A stretch of DNA of 64,000 bases from a virus. Its lineage: Duplodnaviria; Heunggongvirae; Uroviricota; Caudoviricetes. A model generated the notes under the pieces. The model saw nothing but the letters and a program-made list of their open reading frames with translations, did no database searches and had not been told where the DNA came from. The stretch lies in IMG/VR virus record IMGVR_UViG_2695420859_000012, one strand, 5' to 3'. Below, piece by piece: positions 7,704 through 54,970 of this stretch (positions within the stretch are counted from its first letter, which is position 1; each line of letters opens with the position of its first letter). The position numbers and the translations under genes are program-made.

Positions 7704-8579
7704 TTAAATTTTTACATTGGTCAGTGCAGCGATAGCCTTATCGTGCTTATTCGCCAGAGAGCAGTACCACTTCACACGGGTACGTACTGCGTCTTTGTTC
7801 TGTACAGTACCAATGTTTTCAACAACGATACCTGCGTTATCGCCGCCATACAGACCAGTAACGCCGTTCTCTTCTGACAGATGCAAGCAGTAGATGCTTG
7901 CTTTGCCAGAATCAGTCGGGATGAAGTCGTTGATGATGAACGGAACGCCGTTATGACACAGCATCGGACGACCGAAGTTCTCCATCATGATTTCAGACGG
8001 ACCTACGTTTACTGTACGCAGCAGCGCACGGTAAGCACGAAGGTGCTCTGAACGCATCATGATGCAGTCAGCACCAAGATCTTTCACCGCATCGACCAGT
8101 TCGTCGAACATAGAGAAAGTCATAGATGCACCGGCGATATCGATCTTCTGATCTGCGTGCATCAGGCGTGGAATGCCGTCAAACGCTTTGTTGTTGGTGC
8201 TGGAGTCACCCAAAATCAGATTGCGACGGAACGCACGAGCCAGACCTTTAACTTTCTGACGAACCTGAATAGCCAACTGGTTATTGGTGTCGGCCATAGT
8301 GGTTGCCAGGAATTTATCAACGTCTACGTCACCAGCCAGAATACGCAGTTTCGCAACGCATTCTTCGAAGGTTGCTGCACCTTCCGGGATGGTGTCGTTA
8401 ACGTCGATGAAGGTAGCCTCACTCAGCGTTTTTTCACGGTTGTACAGATATGCCTTTGAAGTAATTTTCATAAAAGGCAGGATGGCAAACAGGTCATCGC
8501 GATCGATGATGGTTTCAATCACGCCCTGTTCAAGTTCGTTGTTAGACAGCTTTTCAGCTTCTTCACGCAGTAATGGCAT
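7704..8579 (-). CDS. Major capsid protein (putative)
   Basis: 291-aa ORF immediately downstream of the scaffold-like gene and followed by a strong terminator, the typical capsid arrangement. Assigned by position only. Confidence 0.55.
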   Translation of the reverse strand: MPLLREEAEKLSNNELEQGVIETIIDRDDLFAILPFMKITSKAYLYNREKTLSEATFIDVNDTIPEGAATFEECVAKLRILAGDVDVDKFLATTMADTNNQLAIQVRQKVKGLARAFRRNLILGDSSTNNKAFDGIPRLMHADQKIDIAGASMTFSMFDELVDAVKDLGADCIMMRSEHLRAYRALLRTVNVGPSEIMMENFGRPMLCHNGVPFIINDFIPTDSGKASIYCLHLSEENGVTGLYGGDNAGIVVENIGTVQNKDAVRTRVKWYCSLANKHDKAIAALTNVKI

Positions 8580-13475: not shown

Positions 13476-14366
13476 TTATGCCGGTAAAGCAATTTCTAAC
13501 GGTTTATCCAAAGGTTGTTTGTCGAATGCCAGCAGTGGCAGCGTGTCAGGCAGTCGACGACCAAAGTCAGGGTTTCGATACACCCCATACAACGGAGACG
13601 TAAAGCTCAGGTTGTGAATGTCCTTGAGCAACTTCACAATGCTGGCCTCGTCCACCAGACTGTCGGCAATGTCCTGAATCGTCGTGCCACGATTCCGCCC
13701 AGCTTTTGCCAGGGAACTGTTCTTGTGGTAGTCCGCCACCAGATCACGCAGTGCACGGCGACGACGAGACTCGCTCATTGCGAACAACTCTTTGACGATC
13801 GCCTCGTTATCACCCGGGTCGGAACGGAAATGGCGCTGGAATACACGCAGTGCACTTTCATAGCTCTTCGGTCGCTCAGGGCGGATGAACTTAAACCCTG
13901 CTTTCATGGCGAAGGGATTGTATTTGCTCATCGAGGACTGGATCTCAATGATTGGCCGGTCATGCATCCTGCTAACCAGGTTAATCATTCGATAAGAGAC
14001 GCCTACGCCACGATACTGAGTATCCACAACTGAGCGACTGATCACCGCAAAGTTGTTATTCACGTACCGACCCCAGTACTGGTTAGCCACGGTGGTATTA
14101 GTGGTTGGTTTCAACTTAGGAAACATGCGGTGGCGAGGTGCCAACAGTAGTTTCGGGTAAGCCATAACCACGACGCCCACCAGACGGTCATCAAGTTCGC
14201 AGCGATAGTAAGTTGGCGCGAAAGGTTTGCCGTCTGTTTTGTAGTGAAGCGACTTAAGAGCGTGCCAGTCCTCTACAGTTCCCTTTGTAACAGTCATTCG
14301 CTCCAGAAAGTCCAGATGACGCGGAAACTCTTCAGGGCGGTAGCGTTTAATGATGATGTCCGTCAT
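13476..14366 (-). CDS. GNAT-like acetyltransferase-fold protein with C-terminal extension (hypothetical)
   Basis: Segment resembling the GNAT acetyl-CoA-binding motif (SVVDTQYRGVGVSYRMINLV); start overlaps the stop of the upstream ABC ATPase gene. Confidence 0.35.
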   Translation of the reverse strand: MTDIIIKRYRPEEFPRHLDFLERMTVTKGTVEDWHALKSLHYKTDGKPFAPTYYRCELDDRLVGVVVMAYPKLLLAPRHRMFPKLKPTTNTTVANQYWGRYVNNNFAVISRSVVDTQYRGVGVSYRMINLVSRMHDRPIIEIQSSMSKYNPFAMKAGFKFIRPERPKSYESALRVFQRHFRSDPGDNEAIVKELFAMSESRRRRALRDLVADYHKNSSLAKAGRNRGTTIQDIADSLVDEASIVKLLKDIHNLSFTSPLYGVYRNPDFGRRLPDTLPLLAFDKQPLDKPLEIALPA

Positions 14367-15028
14367 GAATGGACCTCATCGTGACTACCATTGCGATATT
14401 CCACCTTCACGCGTTCTTTGTAGTGCTTGGTGATCTGCATATCCGGGCGCAGCGCGTTCTTCAGGTCTTCGTGAGTCGTCGCCACCATTACCGTCGCACC
14501 AACCTTTCGAGCGGCACGCTGGAGGTTAGACGCCACAACCTGAGCGGTTACACGGTCGAGAACAGCGCCGAACTCGTCAGCAGCCCACACTTTAGCGCCT
14601 GACTCAATCAGTTTGGCAATCTTGAGACGATATTTCTGGCCGTCTGACATTTCAGAAGGCTTGCGAACAAACAGATATGCATCGTTCAGACCAGCCATAG
14701 ATAACAACCCAAGCGCATCACTGGTCGTTTTGCCCAACTGATCGATGACGTTAACCTCATTATCGAAGGTAAAATCATCGATGGAGGCTACAGACAGCCC
14801 TTCATCCTTCATCTGTCGTTGCAACTCGCGCAGCACAACGGATTTGCCGGAACCGGATTGGCCGGTGATGTACACCACATCGCCCTGCTTCACTTCCAGC
14901 TCCAGATTGTCGTAAAGCGTCCACTCTTTTTCGTCCAGGCCAAGCCCGAACGACTCAGCGATTTCCAACGTGCGCGTGGTTTTATTTACGCGTGTCTGAA
15001 ACGATACGTTGATGATGTATTTGCTCAT
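14363..15028 (-). CDS. ABC-type ATPase (stand-alone nucleotide-binding domain)
   Basis: Walker A (GQSGSGKS), ABC signature-like MSDGQKYRL, Walker B (VWAADEF). Confidence 0.6.
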   Translation of the reverse strand: MSKYIINVSFQTRVNKTTRTLEIAESFGLGLDEKEWTLYDNLELEVKQGDVVYITGQSGSGKSVVLRELQRQMKDEGLSVASIDDFTFDNEVNVIDQLGKTTSDALGLLSMAGLNDAYLFVRKPSEMSDGQKYRLKIAKLIESGAKVWAADEFGAVLDRVTAQVVASNLQRAARKVGATVMVATTHEDLKNALRPDMQITKHYKERVKVEYRNGSHDEVHS

Positions 15029-15693
15029 GCAGCCATCTCCCCGGAAGAGATCTTCTCCGCATATGCCACAAATGCGTCTACCCCGCTTTCTCCCGTCATT
15101 TCTTCCATGTGGGCAAGCAAATCACCAACAACAATGGCAGAGCCAGCAGGGAGCGTTTTAAAGCCCAATACGTCGACAACACGTACTTCTTCCGCTGCAA
15201 CTTCACGACTGATCTCGGTGTGTTCATCCTTCTGTCGTTTAGTTTCTTCGCCAAGATCGATAACTAGCGAGTCGGTGTCCATTTCTTCTGTCATACTGCC
15301 AACGAGAACATTCAACTCACGCTCTTCAAAGCCGAAAACCTCGATATCGTCCAGAACAAGCGACTCAAGCTCTTTCTGTAGCTTAATTGCATCGTAATCA
15401 ATGCTGGCAAGTCGGTTATCTTCAAGGCGCTTCGCACGAACCTCGTCATCACTGAGATCATCGCGAACAATAACCGGTACGCGCTCAAGTCCAGCAAAAA
15501 TTGCAGCCTCACGGCGGCCGTGGCCAGTAATAATTACGTCGTTCTTATCGACCGTAATTGGCTGGTCAAATCCGCGCTTTTTAATGGCTGCGGCTAGATC
15601 TCGGATCTGCTGTTCATCATGCTTTTTGGCATTCATCTCATAGGGAATAAGATCTGCCGGGTCGCGATATACGATTTCAAACTTTTTGGTCAT
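15025..15693 (-). CDS. ParB-like nuclease domain protein
   Basis: ParB N-terminal domain motif (ITGHGRREAA); start placed at the internal Met overlapping the stop of the upstream gene (track start 15726). Confidence 0.6.
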   Translation of the reverse strand: MTKKFEIVYRDPADLIPYEMNAKKHDEQQIRDLAAAIKKRGFDQPITVDKNDVIITGHGRREAAIFAGLERVPVIVRDDLSDDEVRAKRLEDNRLASIDYDAIKLQKELESLVLDDIEVFGFEERELNVLVGSMTEEMDTDSLVIDLGEETKRQKDEHTEISREVAAEEVRVVDVLGFKTLPAGSAIVVGDLLAHMEEMTGESGVDAFVAYAEKISSGEMAA

Positions 15694-16391
15694 TACATAC
15701 GCTCCTTGTAGTAGTCGACCAGCCACACCAGAGCCTCACCAGCGTTCTCCATTTCATTACCGGTGTTAATAGCCTGCTCTTTGATGATGTTTTTTATGGT
15801 TTCTGCAACACGATCTGACGCATCGAAAGTTACTTTGAAGCGCATGGTCTGATGTTCCGCACCCACACGTTCGGTTTTCTCTCGTTTGTCGGTATCGACA
15901 GGCTCATCACTACCACGAGACAACGCCTCCAGTGCTTCAAGGTCGATTGCCGCCTCTTTTGCTAAAACCATCGAGATTTCGTCGTCATACGGGGCGATTT
16001 CAGACAGTTGATAGTCAAGTTCTGACTGAATTTCTTCAATGAAGCGTTGCAATGCGATTTGGTCGTCTTCACCGTATCGCTCGTTGTCCACCAGTGACAT
16101 CTGTTTAGCTACGACATCGCTAATTTTGCCCACAGAAAGCACCGGAACCGTTGAAATTCCTTGCTCAATAGCAGCACGCCAGCGATGTTCGCCGCCGAGG
16201 ATTTCAAAAAATCCATCTTCAAGTTCACGAGCCAAAATTGGCTTAAAAAAGCCCAATTTTTCGATAGAACCTTTCAGTTTTTCAAAATTCTGCGCACCAA
16301 CCGAATTGGTGTTCCAGGTATTCGGGCGAAGGTTGGCAACATCAACCTGCAAAATCGTGATTTTTACATCCATTTTATTGCTACAATCCAC
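15693..16391 (-). CDS. ParB-like nuclease domain protein
   Basis: ParB N-terminal domain motif (ILGGEHRWRAA); first gene of the operon, divergent from the helicase gene. Confidence 0.6.
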   Translation of the reverse strand: MDCSNKMDVKITILQVDVANLRPNTWNTNSVGAQNFEKLKGSIEKLGFFKPILARELEDGFFEILGGEHRWRAAIEQGISTVPVLSVGKISDVVAKQMSLVDNERYGEDDQIALQRFIEEIQSELDYQLSEIAPYDDEISMVLAKEAAIDLEALEALSRGSDEPVDTDKREKTERVGAEHQTMRFKVTFDASDRVAETIKNIIKEQAINTGNEMENAGEALVWLVDYYKERM

Positions 16392-18322: not shown

Positions 18323-18787
18323 ATGAAGTCTCCCATACTGTTCACTTTCTGTTCTAAAACTATCATGAAATACTCGCTTCTCCCTCTACTAACGTTACCA
18401 GTGTTGATGCTTACCGCGTGCCAATCACGCCCAATATCAATCCATGACGCCAAACCAGCACCGCAGGCCAAAGTGTTCAAGTATCAAAGCGCAGCGCCAG
18501 CTACGTTGGTGGTAATGAGAGACACAGGTTTTGTAGGAGCTGGATGTGATGCTTCCATTTTCATCAACGGCGAAACTGTCGCAAAACTGGCTACAGGCGA
18601 AAAAGCGACTTTCCATTTAAATGCCGGAGAATTAATTATGGGTGCATCTCTTGAAGGTGCAGGTTTATGTGCTCTAAACCCCGCTCGTCAAGAGCGAGAA
18701 ACGACTCTGAAGAATGGAGACACAAAAGCGTTCAGGGTGTTCACCAGCAATTCTGGTGACATCGACATTCTGCCAACAACTCTGTGA
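18323..18787 (+). CDS. Putative lipoprotein
   Basis: N-terminal hydrophobic segment ending in lipobox-like LTAC (LLPLLTLPVLMLTACQS); GGGAG RBS before the ATG. Confidence 0.5.
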   Translation: MKSPILFTFCSKTIMKYSLLPLLTLPVLMLTACQSRPISIHDAKPAPQAKVFKYQSAAPATLVVMRDTGFVGAGCDASIFINGETVAKLATGEKATFHLNAGELIMGASLEGAGLCALNPARQERETTLKNGDTKAFRVFTSNSGDIDILPTTL

Positions 18788-18791
18788 TGAC

Positions 18792-19316
18792 ATGACAACC
18801 AAAGATATTACCTACGGTATCCAAGCTGAACTCTGGCCGCGAGATTACACTAACGTTGAAAAACTACTGATGTTCTGGCGCAGAGAACAAATTCCTGTAA
18901 GGGTCACTCTCGAAGATGGCCAGGCGTTTTGCATGTACGTTTATGGCCTCATGCCATCTCGTAACAAAGTTGACCTTTGCCCAGCCCCTTTTGACAAAGA
19001 AAATCGTATAAGGCTCCCACTTGAACGCATTAGTACAATTGAATCAGGTGTGGTTGACAGTATCGCTCACGATTTCAAAGGTCGACTAACAGTTCACCCT
19101 GATTATGTCGATAATCGGCCATCACGCCGCGATTTTTTTGCAATTTGCAACCAAGCCTACAAAGCAAACAAATCTATAAGGGTGTACATGGCGGATGGCC
19201 GTGAAATTGAGGGGGTGTCAGCAGGCGCAGATGCTTGTCAGGTTACACTACGTGTCGAGAACGGTAGAAAAATAGTTGTTTTGTTCGATTGGGTTGAACG
19301 AATTTTGCCTTTTTGA
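18792..19316 (+). CDS. Hypothetical protein (175 aa)
   Basis: ORF from the internal Met (MTTKDITY) immediately after the lipoprotein stop; the track ORF begins at 18714 and overlaps. Confidence 0.4.
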   Translation: MTTKDITYGIQAELWPRDYTNVEKLLMFWRREQIPVRVTLEDGQAFCMYVYGLMPSRNKVDLCPAPFDKENRIRLPLERISTIESGVVDSIAHDFKGRLTVHPDYVDNRPSRRDFFAICNQAYKANKSIRVYMADGREIEGVSAGADACQVTLRVENGRKIVVLFDWVERILPF

Positions 19317-19911: not shown

Positions 19912-20562
19912 ATGGCTAACATTATCATTTCTAAAAAATCCATCATTGAAGCTGCTTCCATTGTATCCGATGAACTGCGCGAAAAAGCAGATCTGGCAAC
20001 TCAAACATATAACGAACATTATAAAAATGGTACGCACACTAAAGCAGACAAAGCAAATATGCAAGCTGCGACCACTAAACTTGCTTACTTCATCAACAAC
20101 GTCGTAAACGCAGTAGAAGACGAAAAATTATGCTCTGTTTTCTACTATGCGATTAAAGCAAGCAAACAAGCGCCAGAAGTATTTTTCCGTGATGCAATGA
20201 CTAATAGTTATTCTCTGGAAAAACTGGTTTATCTGGTTAAATCAATTAAATCTGGTAAATGCGTTTATTCCATCGCTGATATGTCAGGATCTCGTGTATT
20301 CGCTTTAATCGATATGATTAACGACGAGATCGACACGTTCACCAATGGCGCTGTTTTCGATTTAATGAATGAAGCTAAAAAAGCGTGCGAAATTAAATTG
20401 GACGCTGGCTATACTCAAGCCAACCAGTTGATCAATCTTTGCGAACGTCTTGGACTTGTTGAGAAAGTCAAAGGAATGGGAAGCGCAAAAGCTGGTACAC
20501 AGCAATATCGCTTTATCAAGAATGATTTCTACAATTATTTAGCTGATGCTTTTAAAGCGTAA
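19912..20562 (+). CDS. Hypothetical protein (216 aa) in low-GC cassette
   Basis: AT-rich coding region with its own promoter-like sequence, RBS and downstream hairpin. Confidence 0.55.
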   Translation: MANIIISKKSIIEAASIVSDELREKADLATQTYNEHYKNGTHTKADKANMQAATTKLAYFINNVVNAVEDEKLCSVFYYAIKASKQAPEVFFRDAMTNSYSLEKLVYLVKSIKSGKCVYSIADMSGSRVFALIDMINDEIDTFTNGAVFDLMNEAKKACEIKLDAGYTQANQLINLCERLGLVEKVKGMGSAKAGTQQYRFIKNDFYNYLADAFKA

Positions 20563-20572
20563 TTAATGGAAT

Positions 20573-20596
20573 CAAGCGCCCACTATGGGCGCTTTA
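20573..20596 (+). terminator. Hairpin (GCGCCCA-CTAT-GGGCGC), weak terminator or RNA structure
   Basis: Same hairpin sequence as the terminator at about 21073; followed by TTTAAAGG rather than a clean U-tract. Confidence 0.35.
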
Positions 20597-20612
20597 AAGG
20601 AGCTTTAAAAAA

Positions 20613-20816
20613 ATGGTCAGCTATGACAAGATCCGCGCAAAGTATCGCGCAAAGTATCGCGCTTATAAACTGGAATTAATCGATGATTTGATCGCGCAAC
20701 GCGACCAATTAAATTTTACGTTTTCTGATTTGCTTAATAGCAAGCGAGATTGCAAGCGCAAACGTGAATACTTACGTTTAAGCGCATTAATCGGAAAACT
20801 TCAAAATTCTATTTAA
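20613..20816 (+). CDS. Small basic protein (67 aa, hypothetical)
   Basis: AAGGAG RBS; Lys/Arg-rich (KIRAKYRAKYRAYK). Confidence 0.45.
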   Translation: MVSYDKIRAKYRAKYRAYKLELIDDLIAQRDQLNFTFSDLLNSKRDCKRKREYLRLSALIGKLQNSI

Positions 20817-20837
20817 TTTTTTTTAAGGAGCTTAATC

Positions 20838-21068
20838 ATGTTTGTTCTTATCGCTGGCGTTAACGTCCATAATGAATATTATGTTAATCGCATCGCTGGG
20901 ATCGCTGGTTACGCTGGGCGCGCAGTCGAGCTTATAGATGAAACGACGCGCAAAATTGACTTATTGAGCGACCAGGAGCGAAAAAAAGCAGACGTGAACG
21001 ACGCTGATATATTTTTAATGTTAAAAGCGTTTGTAGAAATGGGATTTAAAATCAGTTTACACAAATAA
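20838..21068 (+). CDS. Small protein (76 aa, hypothetical)
   Basis: AAGGAG RBS; last gene of the low-GC cassette. Confidence 0.45.
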   Translation: MFVLIAGVNVHNEYYVNRIAGIAGYAGRAVELIDETTRKIDLLSDQERKKADVNDADIFLMLKAFVEMGFKISLHK

Positions 21069-21072
21069 AATC

Positions 21073-21100
21073 GAGCGCCCACTATGGGCGCTTTTTTTCG
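21073..21100 (+). terminator. Rho-independent terminator
   Basis: GAGCGCCCA-CTAT-GGGCGCT hairpin followed by TTTTTTTCGTTT; a second GC hairpin plus T-run follows at about 21120-21150. Confidence 0.7.
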
Positions 21101-21684
21101 TTTCCAATACACCTACCATAACGCGCCATCATTGGCGCGTTTTTATTGTCTTTAACTCACTCCAACAACATAAAAATAAGCGCCAAAATAACGCCATAGA
21201 CGCGCTTTTATATCCTTACCAGTACATGCCCATTACTTAACACATTAACGCGCTTAAAACGCATTATATTGCGCTATAGAGTATGGTTAATCATTGGCTT
21301 TTAGTCTTGCTATGTGATCCGCGTTTATTTGTCGGTGCGGATCGGCATTTTGTTTTGTTCTGTATCCGCTCGCGTATTATGTGCGCGTGATTTTTCACAT
21401 AATCACACCACTTAATCACGTATGTGATTATGCTACGAAAGAAATCTGGATGTCTCAGGCGACGAAAGTCATCATAATTTCCCCCGCTCACCTGTCCGAC
21501 AACCGCTGGTTGGATTCCACCAGCTTCCCGATGTTTTTTCTACACAAAGGCGAATGCAGCCGTTTCCCGAAAAAATCCTGGCCGTTCCCCGTCGGCTCAT
21601 GAATACGTTCCTCGCCGTTTCTGAAAATTTCCCTGCGGCAGCTGGTGGCTATAGAGAAAGGGCCGTTTCTGGCCCTCTTCTCAG

Positions 21685-22167
21685 TTACACGCCATCAAGG
21701 ATGTGGATGCGGTTGCTTGCGTATACATTCAGCATAAAGTTAGCGCAAAACAGTTTCCATGTATCAACGCCAGCGGTATACGTAATGTTTTTGCATTTAA
21801 TTGCATTGTTGGCGATCCGCATCCCCTGCGATACTGCTTCATCGTCGGAAAATTTGAACGACGATTGAGTTTTAATCCAGACAGAAATCTGCGTAGCGAA
21901 CTCAATCAGCTTGGACTGGCAGAATCGCCCGGAGCGCACCGGAAAGACGAACGTTCCGAATCCAGAATTTACCACATATGCTTTCTCAAATACCCGCGAG
22001 TAACGACGATTGCCAATGATGTCGCGTGCAATAATGCATTTTTCTTGTGCTGACAGTTCTACCGTCTCATTGTCGCGCCATGCACCAAGTACTCGTTTTT
22101 CAATGTCAGAGAACGTTACAGCGATATTGCCATGTGCGGGTGCGTTTACAGTAGCGATAAAATTCAT
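21685..22167 (-). CDS. Hypothetical protein (160 aa)
   Basis: ORF preceded by an AAGGA RBS and the conserved AACAAnTTGTTTTCT upstream element. Confidence 0.5.
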   Translation of the reverse strand: MNFIATVNAPAHGNIAVTFSDIEKRVLGAWRDNETVELSAQEKCIIARDIIGNRRYSRVFEKAYVVNSGFGTFVFPVRSGRFCQSKLIEFATQISVWIKTQSSFKFSDDEAVSQGMRIANNAIKCKNITYTAGVDTWKLFCANFMLNVYASNRIHILDGV

Positions 22168-22517
22168 GATTAATTCCTTATCGTAAATAACAAATTGTTT
22201 TCTTGTTGGTGTTAATTATCGTTGTACGAATAAGGCGTCAAAGTGGAAAGTTGCGGTAGCCGGACGGGAACAGGTGGGTTTGTCGGTTGCCTGGAGGTAA
22301 GAGGTTGGTGTTATTAGCCTGAGGGAAACAGGATGGTCATTTAAGACCACCAATGCTGGTGGCCTTAATAATTATCGCCCGATTACGCTAAGGATCTTTT
22401 CCTCAACTGATTTGTTGTTGCGACTAAACTGCCTTGCGTATCTGATGACAGAAGAGGCGTTTTGCTTTCTGACCATCTCGGCTCTTTCCTTCAGGCGTTT
22501 CTTGAAATCGCCCATAT

Positions 22518-22892
22518 TTACCACCAGGCGCAGAAGGTCAGTCTGTTATTGTGAAAGTCGTGGTTCTTAATCAGATCTTCCACAAGCTCTTTCAACTGCC
22601 CCACATCATGCCAGTAACCTTCGTCGTACTCCTGACTGCCGAAGAAAAAACCTTCCCGAGTAGGCAAGTACTCTTCGCAATTGCTTTCGTTTATGTGCAT
22701 CAAATGAGCTTTCAGAAGACAAATGTCATTCATCGTTAATTCTAAAAGCTCACAATTTTCGACTTCACCTACGTTGCGCTCCATCCACCCAACGAGCGCA
22801 TTGAACTTACGGAAGTAAGCAACCTGCTTTCTGGATGCCTCGTTATTCAGATCGTTTTTAGGCTGTGTCTCGATATAGATATCAAGTCCCAT
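22518..22892 (-). CDS. Hypothetical protein (124 aa)
   Basis: Start placed at the internal Met (MGLDIYIETQ) with AAGGA RBS; conserved upstream element at about 22940-22975. Confidence 0.45.
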   Translation of the reverse strand: MGLDIYIETQPKNDLNNEASRKQVAYFRKFNALVGWMERNVGEVENCELLELTMNDICLLKAHLMHINESNCEEYLPTREGFFFGSQEYDEGYWHDVGQLKELVEDLIKNHDFHNNRLTFCAWW

Positions 22893-22983
22893 GATGGTTT
22901 CCTTATTAACTTGCTTCAGTAAAATCATTTTCACAAATCAGATAAGGCAGAAAACAAATTGTTATCGGGCTTAATAAAATGGC

Positions 22984-23008
22984 GCGGTTTACGCGCCATT
23001 TAAAGAGG
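22984..23008 (-). terminator. Rho-independent terminator
   Basis: AATGGCGCG-GTTTA-CGCGCCATT hairpin followed on the reverse strand by TTTTATT, just downstream of the 23010-23405 gene. Confidence 0.55.
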
Positions 23009-23009
23009 A

Positions 23010-23405
23010 TTAAGCGAATACGCTTTCAGGGATTAAGGTGTCGGCAGGAATGCCAGAGGTAATGCGCAGGCCGTACTGACCAATCCAGGTAGTGTTGGTA
23101 TTCAGGCTGGAGGCGAATACGGTGTTAACCATATTCATCATGGTTTCAAACACCTCTTCATCAACCTGGCGGAAGTAGTTCTCGATTTTCAGCAGCAGCG
23201 GGTCAGTTGCATCGAGAATGGACTGGTATTGAGTCGCGTACTCGCCGCCGGAGGCATCACCTTTACGCACGATCGTACTGGCCTGGACTTCGGCACCAGT
23301 TTCGGTGTTGTACGTAACAACGGTAATTTTTGCCACATTCTTACCTTCGGCGGTTTCAGAGGCATAGTAAACATCAACTGTCAGTTTTTCGCGTTTAACG
23401 GTCAT
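23010..23405 (-). CDS. Hypothetical protein (131 aa)
   Basis: ORF with RBS, an upstream AT-rich palindrome and a downstream terminator. Confidence 0.5.
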   Translation of the reverse strand: MTVKREKLTVDVYYASETAEGKNVAKITVVTYNTETGAEVQASTIVRKGDASGGEYATQYQSILDATDPLLLKIENYFRQVDEEVFETMMNMVNTVFASSLNTNTTWIGQYGLRITSGIPADTLIPESVFA

Positions 23406-23530
23406 TTCACTCTCCGTAGTGTATTGGTTATTTTTATATTCTATAATCGTAAGTATTTACTTACAATACAAAAAGCCCCGTAAGGATGGCGGGGCTGTCG
23501 TACTGTCGACTAATTGCCACTTGCACATTA

Positions 23531-23842
23531 TCAGGCTATTGCCATCACTGATGCTCTCTGAATTTCTTGCTGGGCCACGCGGTTAACTTCCATCAAGGCC
23601 AGTTCGAGCTGATGTTCCGGCCACATTCTTTGAAACGCCATCCAGCCTTTTCCACGCTGGCGACGAACATTCATTACATAACGAGTAAAGGTGTTTTTAT
23701 CGAAAGACACCGCTGTTTCACGGAACAGACGAATAGAGGTTCCATTGGCAACGATGTCCAGCAAAGTTAATTGAGCAACCAGCGCAGGCTTCTCTTTTCT
23801 CTTCTGGTCTTTGTCCAGACCAAGAACCAATGATTTTTTCAT
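23531..23842 (-). CDS. Hypothetical protein (104 aa)
   Basis: Start placed at the internal Met (MKKSLVLGL); conserved upstream element directly 5'. Confidence 0.45.
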   Translation of the reverse strand: MKKSLVLGLDKDQKRKEKPALVAQLTLLDIVANGTSIRLFRETAVSFDKNTFTRYVMNVRRQRGKGWMAFQRMWPEHQLELALMEVNRVAQQEIQRASVMAIA

Positions 23843-23996
23843 CACAACTCCGTAAACAACTTGTTTTCTCAATGGCGTAAATAATACCAATAAAAAAACG
23901 GCTACAAAGCATAATGATCAGGTGCATGAGCGATATGCAGGTTCTTCCCTGCGGCTACAGATTAAGTTAAGCCAGCAATGCTGGCTTTGGTTGGGA

Positions 23997-24326
23997 TTAC
24001 GCGAATACCTCAAGAAACTCCTGAACGTCCCAATGCTGGACGAGGTGAAGATAGACCTTAGAAATCACGTCATTTTCGCTATCGCATGTGAAGTAGTACT
24101 TCTGGCTGCGGTTGTATGTGTCCACACAAAATTCGCTCATATCCATAAAGTCAGCATCATCACCCAGGTCGCTAATCATCAAAGCAGGTGCATCATCACG
24201 AGTCATCAGCTCCAGCACCCATCTTGAATTAATCAGAGTGGAAGACCAACCTTCCAGCTCATAAAACTGGTCAAACTCTTTTTGAGTCAATTTCTTAATT
24301 TGGTTGATGTCGATATTTGCAAACAT
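23997..24326 (-). CDS. Hypothetical protein (110 aa)
   Basis: Start placed at the internal Met (MFANIDINQ) preceded by AAGGA; conserved upstream element directly 5'. Confidence 0.45.
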   Translation of the reverse strand: MFANIDINQIKKLTQKEFDQFYELEGWSSTLINSRWVLELMTRDDAPALMISDLGDDADFMDMSEFCVDTYNRSQKYYFTCDSENDVISKVYLHLVQHWDVQEFLEVFA

Positions 24327-24499
24327 AAAGCAATCCTTAAACAAGATGTTTTCTTAATGGTGTTATTATCGCAATAACGCACAGGCGAAAAAGGATTTTA
24401 TTCCGGTGAATGTGGTTTTGGCAGTGAGTTTTCAGGTTCAGTACAGAGTACACTTTTTACATTATTCTGATTTAGTGGCCGAAGATGGCTGGTGGGCAG

Positions 24500-24850
24500 A
24501 ATAATCATCTCCCCGAAAACCTACTGAAATCGATTGTGACCCGTTGGCTGTCTGGCACAATTACGCTGTAACTGGGCATTCAGAGGGAATCCAGCGGTAA
24601 GTAGGTTCGCCTTCACGTGAGCGCCTCTCTTCTTCCCGCACATTACAGGTGGGTAGCCGCAACTCTCCCTCTCGCTATGCCGGTACGCCGCCGTTCCTGA
24701 ACCGGCATCGAGCCTTTTCCCGAAATCCACACAGGCAACTCGACCGTTTCCCTGAAAACCTCCAGCCGTTCCCCGAAGGCAACCCAGCCGTTTCTGTAGC
24801 GGGATGCAACCTTTTCCCTGTATGGACCGAAGGCTGACCGTAGGGGTGTT
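24500..24850. repeat. Degenerate direct repeats of a CCGTT(T)CC(C)GAAAA-type unit (second locus at about 21537-21680)
   Basis: At least six related copies here (CCGTTCCTGAACC, CCTTTTCCCGAAATCC, CCGTTTCCCTGAAAACC, CCGTTCCCCGAAGG, CCGTTTCTGTAGCG, CCTTTTCCCTGTATGG) and four at 21537-21680. Confidence 0.5.
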
Positions 24851-25019
24851 ACGGGGGATAAAATCAGGAGTTGAATAAATACGAAAAAGGAGGCGACACC
24901 CCTCCTTCCCTCCCCACTTATACATACCTGGCTTCTTCGCTATACATGTTGTGTTTTATCTGTCTCAACCTCTCTATAGGCGTTAATGCTCACTCCTTCC
25001 AGAATGTTCTATACGGCAA

Positions 25020-25620
25020 CTATTTCTGTTGGTGAATTGGGTGTGTTGTTCTCTCTGTCGGTGTATGTGGTTTCGTTCGTTTTGCGGTGGTTCTTCTATG
25101 GGGTGTTCTCGTCGTTTTGGTGATTGTTCTTCTCCGTGTATGGAGTAATGGCAGGTGGGCGATTCCTTTCGTTGTTGTGTTTGAGTTGTTTGTCTGGAGT
25201 GTGTGAAAGGCTTTTGCAGTTATTCGTGTATTGGGTAATGGCATTTCCCGTGATTGTTGTGTTTCGTGTCTTTTGGGATTGAGAGAAACCTTGCGGTTAC
25301 AGGCTTCGTTGGGGTTTCAGTGATTCTGGTGTTCTTCGCTGTTTGGGGAATGGCGTGTCGTGGGTATCGCGCGTATGAATGTTTTCGGATTGCCTGTGAA
25401 AGTTAGGTTGGTTGTCCGGTAGCCTGGGGAGAAGAGGTGGGTCTTTTCGGTAGCCTGGGGAGAAGAGGTGGGTCTTTTCGGTAGCCTGCCATAAAGAGGT
25501 TGGTTGTTTTTGGAAATGGCATTTGTGTTATTTAGTTGTTTTGTTATGCCTGAAAATAAGTTGTTTATATGGTTGTGTAACGCAACGGGAGCGATTTTGA
25601 GCGTGTGTTTTTGTTGGTAG
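25020..25620. repeat. G+T-skewed non-coding repeat region with a 32-bp tandem direct repeat (about 25418-25500)
   Basis: Forward strand strongly G/T-rich for about 600 bp; recurring GG(A/G)(G/A)(T/A)AATGGC units at about 25142, 25232, 25345 and 25511; GGTAGCCTGGGGAGAAGAGGTGGGTCTTTTC repeated about 2.3 times in tandem. Only low-complexity ORFs are present. Confidence 0.6.
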
Positions 25621-25921
25621 TGTGTTGGGTCGTCTGTGGTGAAAATTGGACGCTGTGGCGCTGTCTGCTGCGTAGAGTTACGGGTATAAGCAGTGATGTG
25701 TGAAAACGTCAATTTTTTAGACCAAATCGGGTGAAAGCGTTGATGTTTCGTTGATCTGTTATTCAGTTGTTTTCTTGATTGTATAAACAACTATAACTTA
25801 TTGATATTTAAGGATGTGATTGCGGGTATGGAAGAAGAGTAGTGGCGATCAACGGATTCTTATAGAAAAGAATCAAATTGTGACCGCCATTATCAACTGA
25901 TTGATTTGTTTACTTGTGTAG

Positions 25922-26320
25922 TCAGTTCTCGAAATGAATAGGGTCAACGTAATGCCGCTCACCGCTTTTACCATTACACAGCACTGTAACTTTCGCCTTT
26001 TCACTCCAGGCTGAGTATAGAAAGTTCCCATCAGGTTGAACATGGTAACGAGAGAAGTAAACATCGCCGACTGAGGCGTCGAACATGTTCCTATCTTTTT
26101 CACTTTGGGCAAGCGAGATGGATATCACCGAATTCCCATTTGGGGAAACGATTTTAAATTTATTCCCTATATCCATAACAATATTGTAACCAGGTAATTG
26201 CTTGTGTGTTTCCGGATCTATTTTCATGCATCGTGGGTACACGATAGTGTTAGGCTCTTCAACTGGCGTGGCATTAGCAGAAAGCACAAAAAATATTAGT
26301 GCCAATGGTGCATATTTCAT
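25922..26320 (-). CDS. Secreted protein (hypothetical, 132 aa)
   Basis: Predicted signal peptide (MKYAPLALIFFVLSANA). Confidence 0.5.
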   Translation of the reverse strand: MKYAPLALIFFVLSANATPVEEPNTIVYPRCMKIDPETHKQLPGYNIVMDIGNKFKIVSPNGNSVISISLAQSEKDRNMFDASVGDVYFSRYHVQPDGNFLYSAWSEKAKVTVLCNGKSGERHYVDPIHFEN

Positions 26321-26432
26321 TTATCCCTCACAATTTCCAATTTTCCAGACCATCGTCTATTTCAGCGTCAGGGTGGAATTGTACCGCATCAAATCCTACA
26401 TCGAGCACCTTTCGAATGTTCTTGATGGTTTG

Positions 26433-26621
26433 CTATGTGACACCGTAATCACGCAGCTTTTCTTCCCTCCCCTGACTCCCCCATACTCCGTTTCTGTACC
26501 CAATTGAGTCCGAGATTGTATGGTGCTCGAAACAGATATTTGGTAGACACTCAGAGTCATGCTGTGTAACGAGGGTAGGGCTACTAACTGTCGTCTTATA
26601 CAATTTGGTGAGTTTCAGCAT
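26433..26621 (-). CDS. Small hypothetical protein (62 aa)
   Basis: Start overlaps the stop region of the upstream gene; no other support. Confidence 0.25.
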   Translation of the reverse strand: MLKLTKLYKTTVSSPTLVTQHDSECLPNICFEHHTISDSIGYRNGVWGSQGREEKLRDYGVT

Positions 26622-26857
26622 TTTACCACCCCGTTCGGAAACAACTCATTCGCCGTAGTTGATATAACCTCCCAATTAACGCCGACATCAGCGTTATGGC
26701 ATTGTCTGATTTTTTGCATCACCTGTACGCATTGTTCATCAGTGAGATCTGTCCTTACTTCAGCAATATCTTCTTTGTGCCACATAACCATGAGTAAGGG
26801 TTCGTCTTCTGGATAGTTTTTCAGTTTCTCGATGATTTCTTTTGCTGTTCCAAACAT
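26615..26857 (-). CDS. Hypothetical protein (80 aa)
   Basis: Start placed at the second Met after a GGAG RBS; two copies of the conserved upstream element directly 5'. Confidence 0.45.
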   Translation of the reverse strand: MFGTAKEIIEKLKNYPEDEPLLMVMWHKEDIAEVRTDLTDEQCVQVMQKIRQCHNADVGVNWEVISTTANELFPNGVVKC

Positions 26858-26969
26858 CTTCATCTCCTAAACAATTTGTTTTCTTATATGACTTATTATC
26901 TCAATCAACAAAAGGTAGAAAACAAATTGTTTTAGAGTTTGTTAAAGTCAGAAGGGGTTGTGTCTATAT

Positions 26970-26995
26970 GAAAATGCCCGGCGTGTTGCCGGGCA
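26970..26995 (-). terminator. Rho-independent terminator of metG
   Basis: GCCCGGC-AACAC-GCCGGGC hairpin followed by ATTTTCAT on the reverse strand, 25-45 nt after the metG stop. Confidence 0.7.
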
Positions 26996-27016
26996 TTGCG
27001 AAGAGAGGTTGTTTAA

Positions 27017-29050
27017 TTACTTAACCTGGTGGCCAGGTTTAGCACCAGCATCCGGGCTTAACAGGAAGATATCTTTCCCGCCGGGGCCAGCAGCCATCAC
27101 CATGCCTTCAGAGATACCGAAGCGCATTTTACGTGGTGCCAGGTTAGCCACCATAATGGTGTGACGACCAATCAGTGCCTGTGGATCTGGATAAGCGGAA
27201 CGGATGCCTGAGAAGACATTACGCTTTTCACCACCGAGATCCAGCGTCAGGCGAAGCAGTTTGTCAGAACCTTCTACAAACTCTGCGTTTTCAATCAGCG
27301 CCACGCGCAGGTCAACTTTGGCGAAGTCGTCAAAGGTGATAGTTTCCTGAATCGGGTCGTCAGCCAGTGGGCCAGTTACCGGTGCGGCTGTGGCTTTCAC
27401 TTCTTCTTTGGATGCTTCCACCAGTGCTTCAACCTGCTTCATATCGATGCGGTTATACAGTGCCTTGAACGGATTCACTTTATGGCCCAGCAGCGGTTGC
27501 TGGATACCATCCCAGGTCAGTTCTGTATTCAGGAATGCTTCTGCACGTTCAGTCAGTTTCGGCAGTACCGGTTTCAGGTACGTCATCAGCACGCGGAACA
27601 GGTTAATGCCCATAGAGCAAATCGCCTGCAGATCGGCATCGCGTCCTTCCTGCTTTGCCACCACCCACGGAGCCTGTTCATCAACATAGCGGTTAGCCAG
27701 GTCAGCCAGTGCCATGATTTCACGGATAGCTTTGCCAAATTCGCGGCTTTCCCATGCTTCGCCAATCACTTCAGCGGCATCAGTAAAGGTTTTGTACAGT
27801 TGCGGGTCAGCCAGTTCGCTTGCCAGCACGCCGTCAAAACGCTTGTTGATAAAGCCTGCATTACGGGAGGCCAGGTTAACCACTTTGTTAACGATATCGG
27901 CATTCACACGCTGAACGAAATCTTCCAGGTTGAGATCGATATCATCAATGCGCGAAGAGAGTTTCGCAGTGTAGTAGTAACGCAGGCTGTCGGCGTCAAA
28001 ATGATTCAGCCAGGTGCTGGCTTTAATAAAGGTGCCGCGAGACTTGGACATCTTCGCGCCGTTCACCGTCACATAGCCGTGAACAAACAGGTTGGTCGGC
28101 TTGCGGAAGTTGCTGCCTTCCAGCATGGCAGGCCAGAACAGGCTGTGGAAGTAAACGATATCTTTGCCGATGAAGTGGTACAGCTCGGCGGTGGAGTCTT
28201 TCTTCCAGTATTCGTCGAAGCTGGTAGTGTCGCCGCGTTTGTCGCACAGATTCTTGAAGGAACCCATGTAGCCAATCGGCGCGTCCAGCCAGACGTAGAA
28301 GTATTTGCCCGGTGCGTTCGGAATTTCAAAACCGAAGTAAGGTGCGTCACGGGAGATATCCCACTGTTGCAGGCCGGATTCAAACCACTCCTGCATTTTG
28401 TTTGCCACCTGCTCCTGCAACGCACCGCTGCGGGTCCATGCCTGCAACATTTCGCTGAAAGAAGGCAGATCAAAGAAGAAGTGTTCGGAATCACGCATTA
28501 CCGGTGTAGCGCCAGAAACCACTGATTTCGGCTCGATCAGTTCCGTCGGGCTGTATGTCGCGCCGCAGACTTCACAGTTATCGCCGTATTGATCCGGCGC
28601 TTTACATTTCGGGCATGTGCCTTTTACAAAACGGTCCGGCAGGAACATGCCTTTTTCCGGGTCGTACAGCTGAGAGATGGTGCGGTTTTTAATAAAACCG
28701 TTCTCTTTCAGGCGAGTATAGATAAGCTCGGACAACTGACGGTTCTCTTCGCTGTGCGTCGAGTGATAGTTGTCATAGCTGATGTTAAAGCCTGCGAAAT
28801 CAGTCTGATGTTCCTGACTCATTTCGCCAATCATCTGTTCCGGTGTGATACCAAGCTGCTGTGCTTTCAGCATGATTGGCGTACCGTGGGCATCGTCGGC
28901 ACAGATGAAATTAACCTCGTGGCCGCGCATTCGCTGGTAACGAACCCAGACATCAGCCTGGATGTGCTCCAGCATATGGCCGAGGTGGATTGAGCCGTTA
29001 GCGTACGGCAGCGCGCACGTCACCAGAATTTTCTTCGCGACTTGGGTCAT
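27017..29050 (-). CDS. metG: Methionine--tRNA ligase (host-type, near-identical to E. coli MetG by recall)
   Basis: 677-aa protein from [29 protein letters not shown] with HLGH and KMSKS (GAKMSKSRG) class I signatures, C4 zinc knuckle and C-terminal tRNA-binding domain. The track ORF extends 43 codons further upstream to 29179. Confidence 0.95.
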
Positions 29051-29207
29051 AGTAGGCATTACTTCTTTGTAGTGAAAAGGGGCTTGATAGTAACAAAATG
29101 GCCTTATGTCTGCCATGTGATAACAGCATTTCTCATAAATGATTAAATGTCGTAGCTGGAGTACACTACAAGGCGACAATTGCGCAAATTAAAATAAAGG
29201 AGACGGG

Positions 29208-30308
29208 ATGAGCGAGTCCAAATCGCCGGATGCCCTGAGAGCAATGGTAGCCGGTACGCTGGCTAATTTTCAGCACCCAACCCTGAAACACAACCTGACT
29301 ACGCTTAAAGCGTTACACCATGTTGCGTTGATGGATGACACACTGCATGTCGAACTAATCATGCCTTTCGTGTGGAATAAGCCTTTTGAAGACCTGAAAG
29401 AGCAATGTAGTGGTGATCTGCTACGTATCACTGGCGCAAAGGCTATTGACTGGAAGCTGTCGTACAACATTGCCACGCTTAAGCGCGTCAAAAACCAACC
29501 AGGCATTAATGGCGTTAAGAACATTATCGCCGTCAGCTCAGGCAAGGGCGGCGTGGGTAAATCCTCCACGGCGGTAAACCTGGCACTGGCGTTGGCTGCT
29601 GAAGGTGCGAAAGTTGGTATTTTGGATGCCGATATCTATGGTCCATCAATTCCAACCATGCTGGGCGCGGAAAACCAACGTCCAACCTCACCGGACGGTA
29701 CTCACATGGCACCTATCATGTCTCATGGCCTGGCAACCAACTCTATTGGTTATCTGGTCACCGACGACAATGCAATGGTGTGGCGTGGACCGATGGCCAG
29801 CAAGGCGCTGATGCAGATGTTGCAGGAAACACTGTGGCCTGATCTGGACTATCTCGTTCTCGATATGCCACCGGGCACTGGTGATATTCAATTGACGCTG
29901 GCGCAGAACATTCCTGTAACTGGTGCGGTTGTGGTAACTACGCCGCAAGACATCGCGCTGATCGATGCGAAGAAAGGCATTGTGATGTTCGAAAAAGTCG
30001 AAGTGCCGGTACTGGGTATCGTTGAAAACATGAGTGTGCATATTTGCAGTAACTGCGGTCATCACGAGCCAATTTTTGGCACCGGTGGCGCACAGAAACT
30101 GGCCGAGAAATACAACACGCAGTTGTTAGGCCAAATGCCACTTCATATCTCTCTTCGTGAAGATCTGGATAACGGAACACCAACCGTTATTAGTCGTCCA
30201 GATAGTGAATTTACGGCTATTTATCGTGACCTCGCAGATCGCGTTGCTGCCCAAATGTATTGGCAAGGTGAAGTAATACCTGGCGAAATCGCATTCCGCG
30301 CAGTGTGA
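29208..30308 (+). CDS. apbC: Fe-S cluster carrier ATPase Mrp/ApbC (host-type)
   Basis: P-loop ([20 protein letters not shown]), conserved CxxC (CSNCGHHEP); divergently arranged with metG as in enterobacterial chromosomes. Confidence 0.95.
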
Positions 30309-53094: not shown

Positions 53095-53215
53095 TAATTA
53101 TTCACATATCCACAGGATAGATCCTAATAAAGAGATCCATAGATAGATCCTTATATAGATCAAATAAGATCCCCGATCGCTGTAAGCCGCGCCACGACTG
53201 GTCTGAAGTCATGTT
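53095..53215. promoter_or_regulatory. Origin-like region: DnaA-box-like site and GATC cluster upstream of repA iterons
   Basis: ATATCCACA (one mismatch to the TTATCCACA DnaA box) at about 53101-53113, followed by GATAGATCC-type repeats containing at least five GATC sites in about 70 bp. Confidence 0.5.
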
Positions 53216-53218
53216 CAT

Positions 53219-53321
53219 GTATGCTGTCAGCGGTAATTGATAGTCTGTCAGCGGTTCACCGTATGCTGCCAACTGTTTTTGGTATTCTGTCAGCGGCAAA
53301 TCAAGTATGCTGTCAGCGGTT
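53219..53321. repeat. Iterons upstream of repA (about 5 copies, 22-24 bp spacing)
   Basis: (G)TATGCTGTCAGCGGT and variants (TCTGTCAGCGGT, TATGCTGCCAACTGT, TATTCTGTCAGCGG) at regular two-turn spacing. Confidence 0.8.
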
Positions 53322-53340
53322 GAATGACAAAGGTGTCCAC

Positions 53341-54435
53341 ATGTCCACAAAAAATAAAAAAGGTAAAAATAACAAAGAAGTAGAAGATAACATCGACAAC
53401 TTTGAAGAAGGTTCCCTTGAATTGTACACAGGGGAACTTGTCCCTAATAGCAACAATACAGTCCAACCAATTGCGTTGATGCGACTGGGGTTGTTCGTCC
53501 CCACGCTTAAGGGAACAAAATACAGTAAACGTAACAAGCCAAATGAGATCGATGCTTCAAAGGAGCTTGTCCAGCTCGAAGTAGCCCGTTCTGAAGGCTA
53601 TTCCGATATCAAGATAACCGGTCCTCGTCTCGACATGGATCATGATTTCAAAACGTGGGTGGGCGTTGTGCGTTCGCTGGCAGAATACGGCGAACCTAAC
53701 GGTCGTGTCGAGTTAAGCATCACGAAATTTGCGAAGTTTTGTGGCTATCCATCGTCACAGATCCGCAAAACACTCCGCGACCGGCTTACAAACAGTCTTT
53801 TGAAGATCATGCGTACAACTCTGTCTTTCCAGAGAACGTATGAAGAAAAGAACGTCGACGGCTCTAACAAGATCTCGCTTCTGATGGTGCACCTCATCAA
53901 TAGCGTGGACTACAACGAGCAGAAAGATACGGTGGTGTTCTATGCAGAACCGAAGCTGGCCGAACTATATCGCTTTGACCATAAGGTTCTTTTGCAGTTA
54001 AAGGTTATCAATAAGCTACCACGCAAAGAAACAGCACAGGCTCTGTACACCTTCATCGAAAGTCTTCCAACCAAGCCTGCGCCGGTATCGCTTGCTCGAT
54101 TGCGTGCGCGACTCAATTTGAGTAGCAGGAATGTCAGCTCGCAGAATCAGACTATACGTAACGGCTTAAAAGCTCTCCAAGATTTGGGCTATCTCGAATA
54201 CAGCGAGATTAAGCGTGGGCGGTCGATCTATATCCAGATTCACAGCCGCAATCCAAAACTCAAAGTCGCACCGCCAAAACCTGAAGACATCGAACCCAAA
54301 AAACCAGATGAGAAAGCCGGGGAAATTGATGCCAAACAGAACATTATCAATAAGATAACCGAACTTTCGCAGAATTTGACGCCTGAAAATATCAAGATGA
54401 TTGAGATCCTTTCCAATAGTCTCAAACTGCTTTGA
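53341..54435 (+). CDS. repA: Iteron-binding replication initiator RepA (putative)
   Basis: 365-aa basic protein flanked on both sides by arrays of its probable binding iterons. Start placed at the internal Met after an AAAGGTG RBS; the track ORF start at 53221 lies inside the iterons. Confidence 0.7.
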   Translation: MSTKNKKGKNNKEVEDNIDNFEEGSLELYTGELVPNSNNTVQPIALMRLGLFVPTLKGTKYSKRNKPNEIDASKELVQLEVARSEGYSDIKITGPRLDMDHDFKTWVGVVRSLAEYGEPNGRVELSITKFAKFCGYPSSQIRKTLRDRLTNSLLKIMRTTLSFQRTYEEKNVDGSNKISLLMVHLINSVDYNEQKDTVVFYAEPKLAELYRFDHKVLLQLKVINKLPRKETAQALYTFIESLPTKPAPVSLARLRARLNLSSRNVSSQNQTIRNGLKALQDLGYLEYSEIKRGRSIYIQIHSRNPKLKVAPPKPEDIEPKKPDEKAGEIDAKQNIINKITELSQNLTPENIKMIEILSNSLKLL

Positions 54436-54970
54436 TATGCTGTCAGCGGTGAAATGTATGCTATCAGCGGCTATTTTTCTGAAAAGTATGCTGTGAACGG
54501 TTAAAGATATGCTACCAGCGGTATAGTGAGATGAACGTATGCTGTGAGCGGTAAATCATCTATCACCACTCAATGCTCTGCCATACCTCCCCAGTGGTTA
54601 CTAACCTCGAAGAGTGCATTCCATATAGGTTTGCGCTCACTAACATTCTATTGCTATTGCGCTGATTGCTTGTAGTGAAAGGCATTTATTGCCTGCTACT
54701 CCCTGATAGAATGTATGCTGTCAGCGGTGTTTTATTGAGGAATTTTTGTTTGGATATGCTATCAGCGGTAATTAATGGTATATGTCAGACCTTCGTATGC
54801 TGCCAGCGGTAATTTTGTTCTGGTTATACCCATACCGGGACACATTATTCATGCAATGTCTTAAGTATGCTGTCAGCGGTAAAAAATCGAGTAAAGTATG
54901 CTGTGAGCGGTGAGATAGACTCTCGATATGCTATCAGCGGTAGTTGATTGTGTATGCTGTCAGCGGTGAC
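54436..54970. repeat. Iteron arrays downstream of repA (about 12 copies in two clusters)
   Basis: TATGCTGTCAGCGGT, TATGCTATCAGCGG, TATGCTGTGAACGG, TATGCTACCAGCGG, TATGCTGTGAGCGG and similar at about 54436-54552 and 54712-54967. Confidence 0.8.

Follow-up and report, generated by a model that had tools for sequence, protein, structure and literature searches.

Two conserved arrays of phased direct repeats in SSU5/pHCM2-type phage-plasmids: predicted protein-binding sites with a possible role in phage-mode replication

The DNA stretch analysed in this work (64,000 nucleotides, Caudoviricetes, IMG/VR record IMGVR_UViG_2695420859_000012, hereafter the window) matches annotated records of SSU5/pHCM2-type phage-plasmids of E. 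coli, and carries two arrays of degenerate direct repeats on the sides of a 3-kb block of small genes. The arrays are a real, conserved and family-specific cis element, and their kind is that of predicted phased protein-binding repeat arrays, not of a proven replication origin. Judging from sequence comparisons, they probably act as binding sites in double-stranded DNA, being neither RNA elements nor coding sequences. Tentatively, they may correspond to the origin used in phage-mode (lytic) replication, or to its control. The family takes in pHCM2 of S. Typhi and much of pMT1 of Y. pestis; SSU5-like phage-plasmids are frequent in clinical Enterobacteriaceae, and members carry resistance genes. 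Plasmid replicons of the family have been typed; no mapped phage-mode origin is known to us in the SSU5/pHCM2/pMT1 family. The array pair, and the dedicated winged-helix protein that may go with it, would provide a testable handle on the way the phage-mode replicon starts, and on the wiring of the switch between modes.

Organization and conservation of the arrays

The repeat unit conforms to the degenerate consensus CCAGCC[G/T]TT[T/C]CC, with core CCGTTTCCC. Nine units have been identified in all, each on the + strand, and are listed here together with a look-alike sequence found next to array A.

21556 to 21636, + strand: array A, three direct units, with cores CCGTTTCCC at 21560, CCGTTCCCC at 21582 and CCGTTTCTG at 21615
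24687 to 24831, + strand: array B, six direct units, with cores at 24691, 24713, 24744, 24766, 24788 and 24810
21653 to 21682, - strand: intrinsic terminator of p160, a 160-amino acid gene; the loop, GTTTCT (21665-21670), looks like a repeat unit

Core-to-core steps measure 22 and 33 bp in array A, and 22, 31, 22, 22 and 22 bp in array B. A first-pass annotation of the window had described the spacing as irregular, which is wrong: array B follows a 22-bp step with one step of 31 bp, and this very pattern is the commonest among 38 distinct array-B sequences of related elements (16 of them), followed by the shorter 22, 22 (9). Spacing changes of one base are rare in the same set. At least four units had been counted at 21537-21680, and at least six at 24500-24850. 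The former locus hosts three true units, and the candidate fourth at 21663 was rejected, being the loop of the terminator of the gene at 21685-22167 (- strand). The stem of this terminator exhibits compensatory changes between genera (GGGCC/GGCCC vs GGGGC/GCCCC). The count of six holds for the latter locus, all units residing at 24687-24831; a sequence at about 24509, also taken for a unit, is only a half-motif (CCCGAAAACC), and was discarded.

That related units recur at the two loci was borne out. The annotation had proposed to check the units by their enrichment over background, and enrichment is what two patterns of different length returned. The motif CCGTTYCYB is found 13 times on the two strands of the window against 4.9 matches expected, and 8 of the 13 matches fall, all on the + strand, in two stretches of about 110 bp (21560-21671 and 24691-24796). 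A longer pattern is found 4 times against 0.26 expected, and all 4 matches lie inside the two loci. A 37-nt stretch of array A shares 76% identity with array B. When a weight matrix was built from array A only, four array-B units were the top out-of-sample sites on both strands of the window; when built from array B only, the unit at 21560 was the top site overall. Since the matrix derived from each array finds the other array, the two loci are truly related.

The 4.1-kb segment around the arrays is 99.9% identical to the E. coli plasmid pM160133_p3 (NZ_CP022167.1; window coordinates correspond to record coordinates minus 60119), and 97.6% identical to the phage-plasmid Cyrano of E. coli LF82, for which a copy number of 5.5 per cell is reported (PMC9928086). 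Weaker matches include Klebsiella phage-plasmids and the Salmonella phage SSU5. Megablast searches against PLSDB retrieved 638 plasmid records nearly matching the segment, 184 of which cover at least 80% of it. Both arrays have been identified, in equal order, strand and register, in Escherichia, Salmonella SSU5, two Klebsiella lineages, Enterobacter, Citrobacter and Cronobacter. Array A is found also in pMT1 of Yersinia pestis, and thus in seven genera; the array-B side has been removed there by an insertion sequence (IS) element. Replicon types vary over the family (IncFIB, rep_cluster_488, 711 and 763), while the arrays persist. The exact two-unit pattern was searched over IMG/VR, and 65 of the 66 loci found are SSU5-like. 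The 66th (IMG/VR UViG_3300036790_000265, 8370-8405) is an intergenic locus of an unrelated high-GC viral contig, made by two GCCGTTTCCCG copies 22 bp apart, and is about the single chance match expected for the pattern. As a conserved, family-specific cis element, the arrays serve as a marker sequence of the family.

Units are degenerate, and their number varies from 1 to 6 per lineage. Arrays could thus be envisaged as non-functional remnants of an old tandem duplication, kept through the close kinship of the elements, yet this is hardly credible. In the most divergent lineages, in which neighbouring proteins are 33-62% identical, the motif is still found at both loci, and this holds where the identity is only 33-53%. 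Core columns (C0, C1, T3, T4, C6) are less variable than inter-core positions (mean entropy 0.80 vs 1.05, p=0.003, relatedness ignored). Indels are rare inside the arrays, despite flanking non-coding DNA full of them. The register of the arrays has been maintained in genera where this flanking DNA has diverged, along with the neighbouring FljA-like, ParB-N and UvsW-like proteins (about 45-50% identical between genera).

Protein-binding DNA, RNA and plasmid maintenance

The first-pass annotation had interpreted the repeats as protein-binding arrays, and neither as a coding nor as a CRISPR pattern. The interpretation is supported by several lines of evidence, one of which is the core conservation mentioned above. 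An open reading frame (ORF) spanning array B on the - strand (24521-24925) is annotated in Cyrano and is not called by PGAP; it is interrupted by stops and frame shifts in Salmonella, Klebsiella, Cronobacter and Citrobacter. As the overlapping ORF is broken across genera, and a 22-bp period cannot encode a peptide repeat, a protein-coding repeat was rejected. Clustered regularly interspaced short palindromic repeats (CRISPR) are near-identical sequences of 24-48 bp, interspersed with unique spacers of similar length. The arrays do not fit this category, because units are degenerate, recur with a period of 22 bp without spacers, and orthologous units are kept across genera.

Both arrays sit in unusually long conserved non-coding stretches, at 21069-21684, between convergent genes, and at 24330-25890. 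At least two strong + strand terminators protect array A on its left side; in the - strand direction, an intrinsic terminator immediately precedes each array (21682 to 21653, and 24910 to 24884). Flanked by terminators, the arrays seem to be kept free of transcription, which would suit a complex of protein and DNA rather than an RNA element. In a scan for sigma-70 promoters sites were not enriched, and none was found at either array.

A plausible partner is encoded close by.

19912 to 20562, + strand: p216 (phrog_1513), candidate array binder, made of a helical domain at the N-terminus and a winged helix at the C-terminus

The p216 protein is the best conserved of the neighbourhood. Identity between genera is 84-87% (49% in the K. 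oxytoca lineage), in contrast to 43-53% for the FljA-like, ParB-N and UvsW-like neighbours, and the repeat motif is present wherever p216 is, down to 53% identity. Searches for p216 revealed no relatives outside the SSU5-type family and no Pfam domain, and comparison with viral structures gave generic winged-helix matches only, none of them significant. Among the structural matches of p216, TubR ranks near the top. On the grounds of adjacency, conservation and fold, we infer that p216 is the best candidate array-binding protein. Taken with the broken ORF, the 22-bp period and the terminators, this makes it probable that the arrays are cis-acting binding sites for protein in double-stranded DNA.

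A role at the RNA level is very improbable. According to this hypothesis, a read-through transcript of the - strand, where units read (C)AGGGAAACGGC and contain GGA, would be a sponge or a target for CsrA or for the FljA-like protein. Most units indeed carry GGGAA or CAGGAA on the - strand, several are located between short GCC..GGC complements, and a conserved FljA-like gene (PF03614) resides in the neighbourhood. Yet, consensus folding of the 38 distinct array-B sequences gave, on either strand, an energy of about 0 and essentially no supported pairs. The GCC..GGC complements lack consistent covariation, and the same position is an A-C pair in SSU5 and G-G in Cronobacter. The arrays are downstream of - strand terminators, with no promoter-like site in between, and spacing conserved to the exact base pair is not expected of a sponge RNA. 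A scan of the region 20500-27000 against Rfam at E<=1 found nothing. A sponge RNA of the CsrB/RsmZ type was rejected on account of the missing fold and Rfam match, and of the location of the arrays past terminators.

The arrays are not the iterons of the plasmid replicon either. RepA iterons (GTATGCTGTCAGCGGT) differ in sequence, and lie 32 kb away. The plasmid replicon, of IncFIB/pKPHS1-like type, spans 53199-54987, and includes repA (53221-54435) and 21-bp-phased GTATGCTGTCAGCGGT iterons, five upstream and about eleven downstream of the gene, in a layout resembling P1 incC/incA. The repA gene crosses the start of the record, and hence is missing from the PLSDB gene table. Iterons of IncpKPHS1 have been reported just downstream of repA (PMC6735626), in agreement with the repA-flanking iterons found here. 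The hypothesis that the 160-amino acid gene next to array A is the repA of IncpKPHS1 was dismissed, since the repA of pKPHS1 encodes a 406-amino acid protein located elsewhere.

Arrays may alternatively be viewed as centromere-like or DNA-organizing sites, either the partition site of ParA/ParB or a loading array for two ParB-N proteins, involved in segregation or condensation. Direct repeats in two clusters are reminiscent of parC1/parC2 of pB171, and of tubC of the TubZRC system; TubR, as mentioned, ranks high among the structural matches of p216, and the two ParB-N proteins are encoded about 6 kb from the arrays. A search around parAB revealed no repeat array, and one palindrome only. We nevertheless regard a centromere role as improbable. 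The parAB genes map at 40.1-41.1 kb of the record and the arrays at 81.7-84.9 kb, about 40 kb apart, and the promoter region of parA lacks the motif, featuring instead the AACAAnnTGTT box described below; a plasmid centromere array would lie next to the partition operon and autoregulate it, a description that the arrays do not fit. The palindrome that follows parB offers another candidate for the centromere. Partition modules moreover differ within the family, yet array A is kept in pMT1, the partition system of which is reportedly of the P1/P7 type (Youngren et al. 2000). Unlike TubR-tubC and parC1/parC2, the arrays are far from parAB, and unit length and sequence are unrelated; no cognate tubulin-like or actin-like partner was noticed near p216, though no search was aimed at one.

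The parAB palindrome (record NZ_CP022167.1, 40042-40070) is a unique sequence of about 30 bp, TGCATTGGCGCGTACATTGCGCCAATGCA, located directly after the small parB-like gene, and is either a terminator or the partition site of a type Ib-like parAB system. The two ParB-N proteins belong to a conserved set of four genes by the terminase genes (13476-16391, - strand), and contain the ParB-N domain only; the other members are an ABC-type ATPase and a 296-amino acid protein without Pfam domain. No specific link of the ParB-like proteins to the arrays was seen.

A possible role in phage-mode replication

Of the three roles (regulator, partition or replication sites) put forward in the first-pass annotation, replication is favoured by the indirect data on strand polarity and base composition reported below, partition is the least likely for the reasons already given, and general regulation is weakened by the presence of a different box at the promoters of the region. 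We tentatively propose that the arrays are the phage-mode (lytic) origin, or sites for its control. In the model proposed, copies of one phage-encoded protein, p216 being the best candidate, would occupy neighbouring units on the same side of the helix, at intervals of about two turns. Because both arrays point one way, the bound protein could possibly pair them, looping out the 3-kb block of small genes. In the lytic replicon of the SSU5/pHCM2/pMT1 family, the arrays would serve for recognition of the origin or for control of replication, and the two forks of bidirectional replication would part at array A or close to it. The phage replicon encodes its own Pol III alpha subunit, DnaB-like helicase, primase, ligase and RNase H.

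In their anatomy the arrays appear closest to iteron arrays, as P1 incC/incA, lambda ori and P4 ori/crr. Iterons are same-orientation direct repeats of about 17-22 bp, set about two helical turns apart, and the arrays of both loci agree with this in orientation and phasing. P1-type iterons (incC/oriR and incA around repA, as well as those of F and R6K) similarly lie in one orientation, about two turns apart, in two clusters separated by a few kb or less, and are able in principle to handcuff; the same architecture is found at the repA gene of this very element. In contrast to P1-type iterons, the arrays are unrelated to the iterons of the resident RepA, have no Rep-family gene between or beside them, bracket a set of variable small genes, and have no adjacent module of AT-rich DNA and DnaA boxes that could be seen. 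Lambda ori contains four iterons bound by the O protein, and in P4 two clusters of sites for the alpha protein, ori and crr, lie 4.5 kb apart, both being needed for replication. In these phage-mode origins phased repeats are bound by a winged-helix-type domain; the arrays are alike in having phased repeats, and in P4, as here, clusters are two and separated. Array units also hold T- and A-tracts which would bend DNA when phased, as in lambda and P4 ori. Differences are that lambda iterons are palindromic and reside inside the O gene, that P4 sites are octamers bound by a primase-helicase, and that for the arrays an origin role is only predicted.

Chi sites are peculiarly arranged around the arrays.

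21517 to 21524, - strand: Chi, left member of an inverted pair around array A (CCACCAGC on the + strand)
21641 to 21648, + strand: Chi, right member of the pair, 5 bp past array A (GCTGGTGG)
24488 to 24495, + strand: Chi about 200 bp left of array B, kept in Klebsiella, Cronobacter and K. oxytoca

The inverted pair around array A recurs in most genera, with the left (- strand) member shifted in position. Chi (GCTGGTGG) is about 7-fold over-represented in the element (14 sites in 64 kb, about 2 expected; 24 sites in the 113-kb plasmid), at a density close to that of the E. coli chromosome, and four sites cluster at 21517-24495.

In the E. coli plasmid, the strand carrying Chi and the FtsK-orienting octamer GGGNAGGG (KOPS) switches best at 77.0-81.75 kb of the record; array A is at 81.68 kb. 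The switch agrees with 30 of the 39 sites and disagrees with 9 (permutation p=0.014, over all possible origins), and its sense is that observed around the bidirectional origin in E. coli. Composition-matched control words display no polarity, and the RepA origin scores -3. An opposite switch is found at about 20-31 kb, diametrically across the circle, at a tyrosine recombinase gene. In SSU5, the switch is located 3-8 kb from the arrays (p=0.04). While the GC skew of the whole plasmid is dominated by gene orientation and uninformative, the GC skew at third codon positions (GC3 skew) of - strand genes differs between the left and the right of the arrays both in E. coli (0.040 vs -0.031, p=0.01) and in Klebsiella (0.007 vs -0.068, p=0.007).

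Other observations weigh against a replication role. In Klebsiella the switch of Chi and KOPS falls at the same location, but is not significant (p=0.70); Chi alone gives p=0.19, and the combined signal is modest and comes from three genomes which share ancestry. The GC3 skew is flat in SSU5, and in E. coli a split at 110 kb is best, equally good, so that arrays and RepA origin are not separable by this parameter. No AT-rich unwinding element or cluster of DnaA boxes adjoins either array, where the GC content ranges from 0.39 to 0.59; one good DnaA-box-like nonamer (TTTTTCACA, at about 21392) was spotted by eye, and no cluster recurs from genus to genus. Pfam and PHROGs searches revealed no recognizable initiator gene beside the arrays, and no member of a Rep family among neighbouring proteins. 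Forks departing from array A would run head-on into the transcription of genes on its right. Helical phasing is not strictly kept everywhere, because the most divergent lineages host 1-4 units, at a spacing of 24-36 bp. Finally, these repeats are not described in the literature searched.

A more detailed version of the replication hypothesis is accordingly worded with greater doubt. The arrays and the inverted Chi pair would mark the unmapped bidirectional phage-mode origin of the whole family, p216 would be a new winged-helix initiator, and array B a paired control locus, similar to P4 ori/crr or acting by incA-like handcuffing. This origin, rather than the interchangeable plasmid replicon, would account for the polarity of Chi and KOPS. 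We consider this scenario possible, though doubtful in the whole of its parts.

A role confined to transcription is a less likely alternative. The DNA between the arrays hosts the following block.

22518 to 24326, - strand: small genes p124, p131, p103 and p109, each with its own promoter-like region, AACAAnnTGTT box and terminator

Arrays could be control or insulator sites bound by p216, p103 or another protein, which by looping or roadblocking would silence or insulate these small moron-like genes, with no involvement in replication. The arrays do bracket small genes transcribed independently, whose content differs by genus (only p131 and p103 are widely kept), and both are found at the ends of leftward transcription units, just past terminators. 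Some genes of the region are expressed in the lysogen (PMC9928086), which fits as well. Winged-helix proteins of the MarR/ArsR and Cox/Xis types act by such control, and p216 could behave likewise. In particular, P2 Cox and lambda Xis are small proteins which oligomerize on several same-orientation boxes, bend DNA and switch temperate phages. The arrays resemble these boxes, which are however set about one turn apart at promoters or att sites, whereas arrays exhibit a two-turn spacing and no evident promoter or att site. Neither array overlaps a promoter-like site, and the Chi pair and the polarity switch would be left unexplained. A more obvious operator is moreover available in the promoters of the block. 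This is the palindromic box AACAAnnTGTT(T/A)TC, found 22 times (at most 1 mismatch, about 16 sites) against 1.2 expected. Many leftward genes carry the box past their promoter-like hexamers and ahead of the start codon, and parA, outside the window, likewise has one upstream. Since promoters are occupied by this distinct box, it is unlikely that the arrays work as general transcriptional operators. Should the arrays only regulate accessory genes locally, the finding would be an ordinary one.

Genes and non-coding sequences around the arrays

Additional features flanking the arrays are listed below.

21069 to 21555, strand not assigned: conserved stretch of non-coding DNA on the left of array A, flanked by convergent genes; every genus has a gap of about 600 bp here
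21073-21093, 21120-21141, 21315-21344 and 21371-21387, + strand: terminators in the gap left of array A
21685 to 22167, - strand: p160 (phrog_1641), conserved, always adjoining array A
24832 to 24930, strand not assigned: conserved non-coding block right of array B, made by GACCGTAGGG, TTACGGGGGATAAAATCAGGAGTTGAATAAATACG, a hairpin and CACTTATAC, and containing the - strand terminator 24910 to 24884

The structure of p160 was modelled with confidence, but found no structural match, and its fold is not recognizable. In the gap left of array A lies the best promoter-like site of the region, TTAACC-16-TATAAT (10/12; 21263-21290, - strand), which aims leftward into short terminator-like hairpins at 21179-21203 (- strand). 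The site may drive a small antisense or non-coding RNA.

Of the non-coding DNA in the region, the block 24832-24930 (TTACGGGGGAT, CTTGAATAAATACG, hairpin, CACTTATAC) is conserved best, K. oxytoca included, and its inspection gave no convincing sigma-70 promoter. Further right, G and T prevail to an extreme degree in the unannotated interval 24980-25800 (G 31%, T 39%, C 13% and A 17% on the + strand), which is conserved in the family and about 68% identical to SSU5. ORFs on its - strand are broken in other genera. The - strand terminator 24910 to 24884 suggests that a CA-rich non-coding transcript of about 0.9 kb originates in the GT-rich region. An origin based on an R-loop in the same region was considered and dropped, because the sole terminator and the promoter-like box imply transcription of the opposite, CA-rich strand. 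Inside the GT-rich region, a 31-bp unit, CGGTAGCCTGGGGAGAAGAGGTGGGTCTTTT, is tandemly repeated at 25417-25504 (2.3 perfect copies, or 2.8 copies at 89% match).

Sites of the AACAAnnTGTT box in the window are at 13045, 13070, 18029, 22189, 22953, 23855, 24340, 25552, 26870, 26921, 30541, 33452, 34166, 34895, 45114 and 62291. The box looks like a dispersed operator, or a 5'-leader element, for a master regulator. The FljA homologue (18714-19316, + strand) matches PF03614 with E=2.5e-84, gives a weak Hfq-like match, and is kept in every lineage of the family. FljA itself is known to repress phase-1 flagellin, acting on translation as an mRNA-binding protein.

In the annotated record, structural and terminase genes reside on the left of the element, and a large DNA-metabolism module on the right. 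Full-length homologues of host genes, encoding methionyl-tRNA synthetase (metG) and an ApbC/MinD-like ATPase, are found at 26986-30277; ribonucleotide reductase, thymidylate synthase, dihydrofolate reductase and RNase HI are encoded to the right of this interval.

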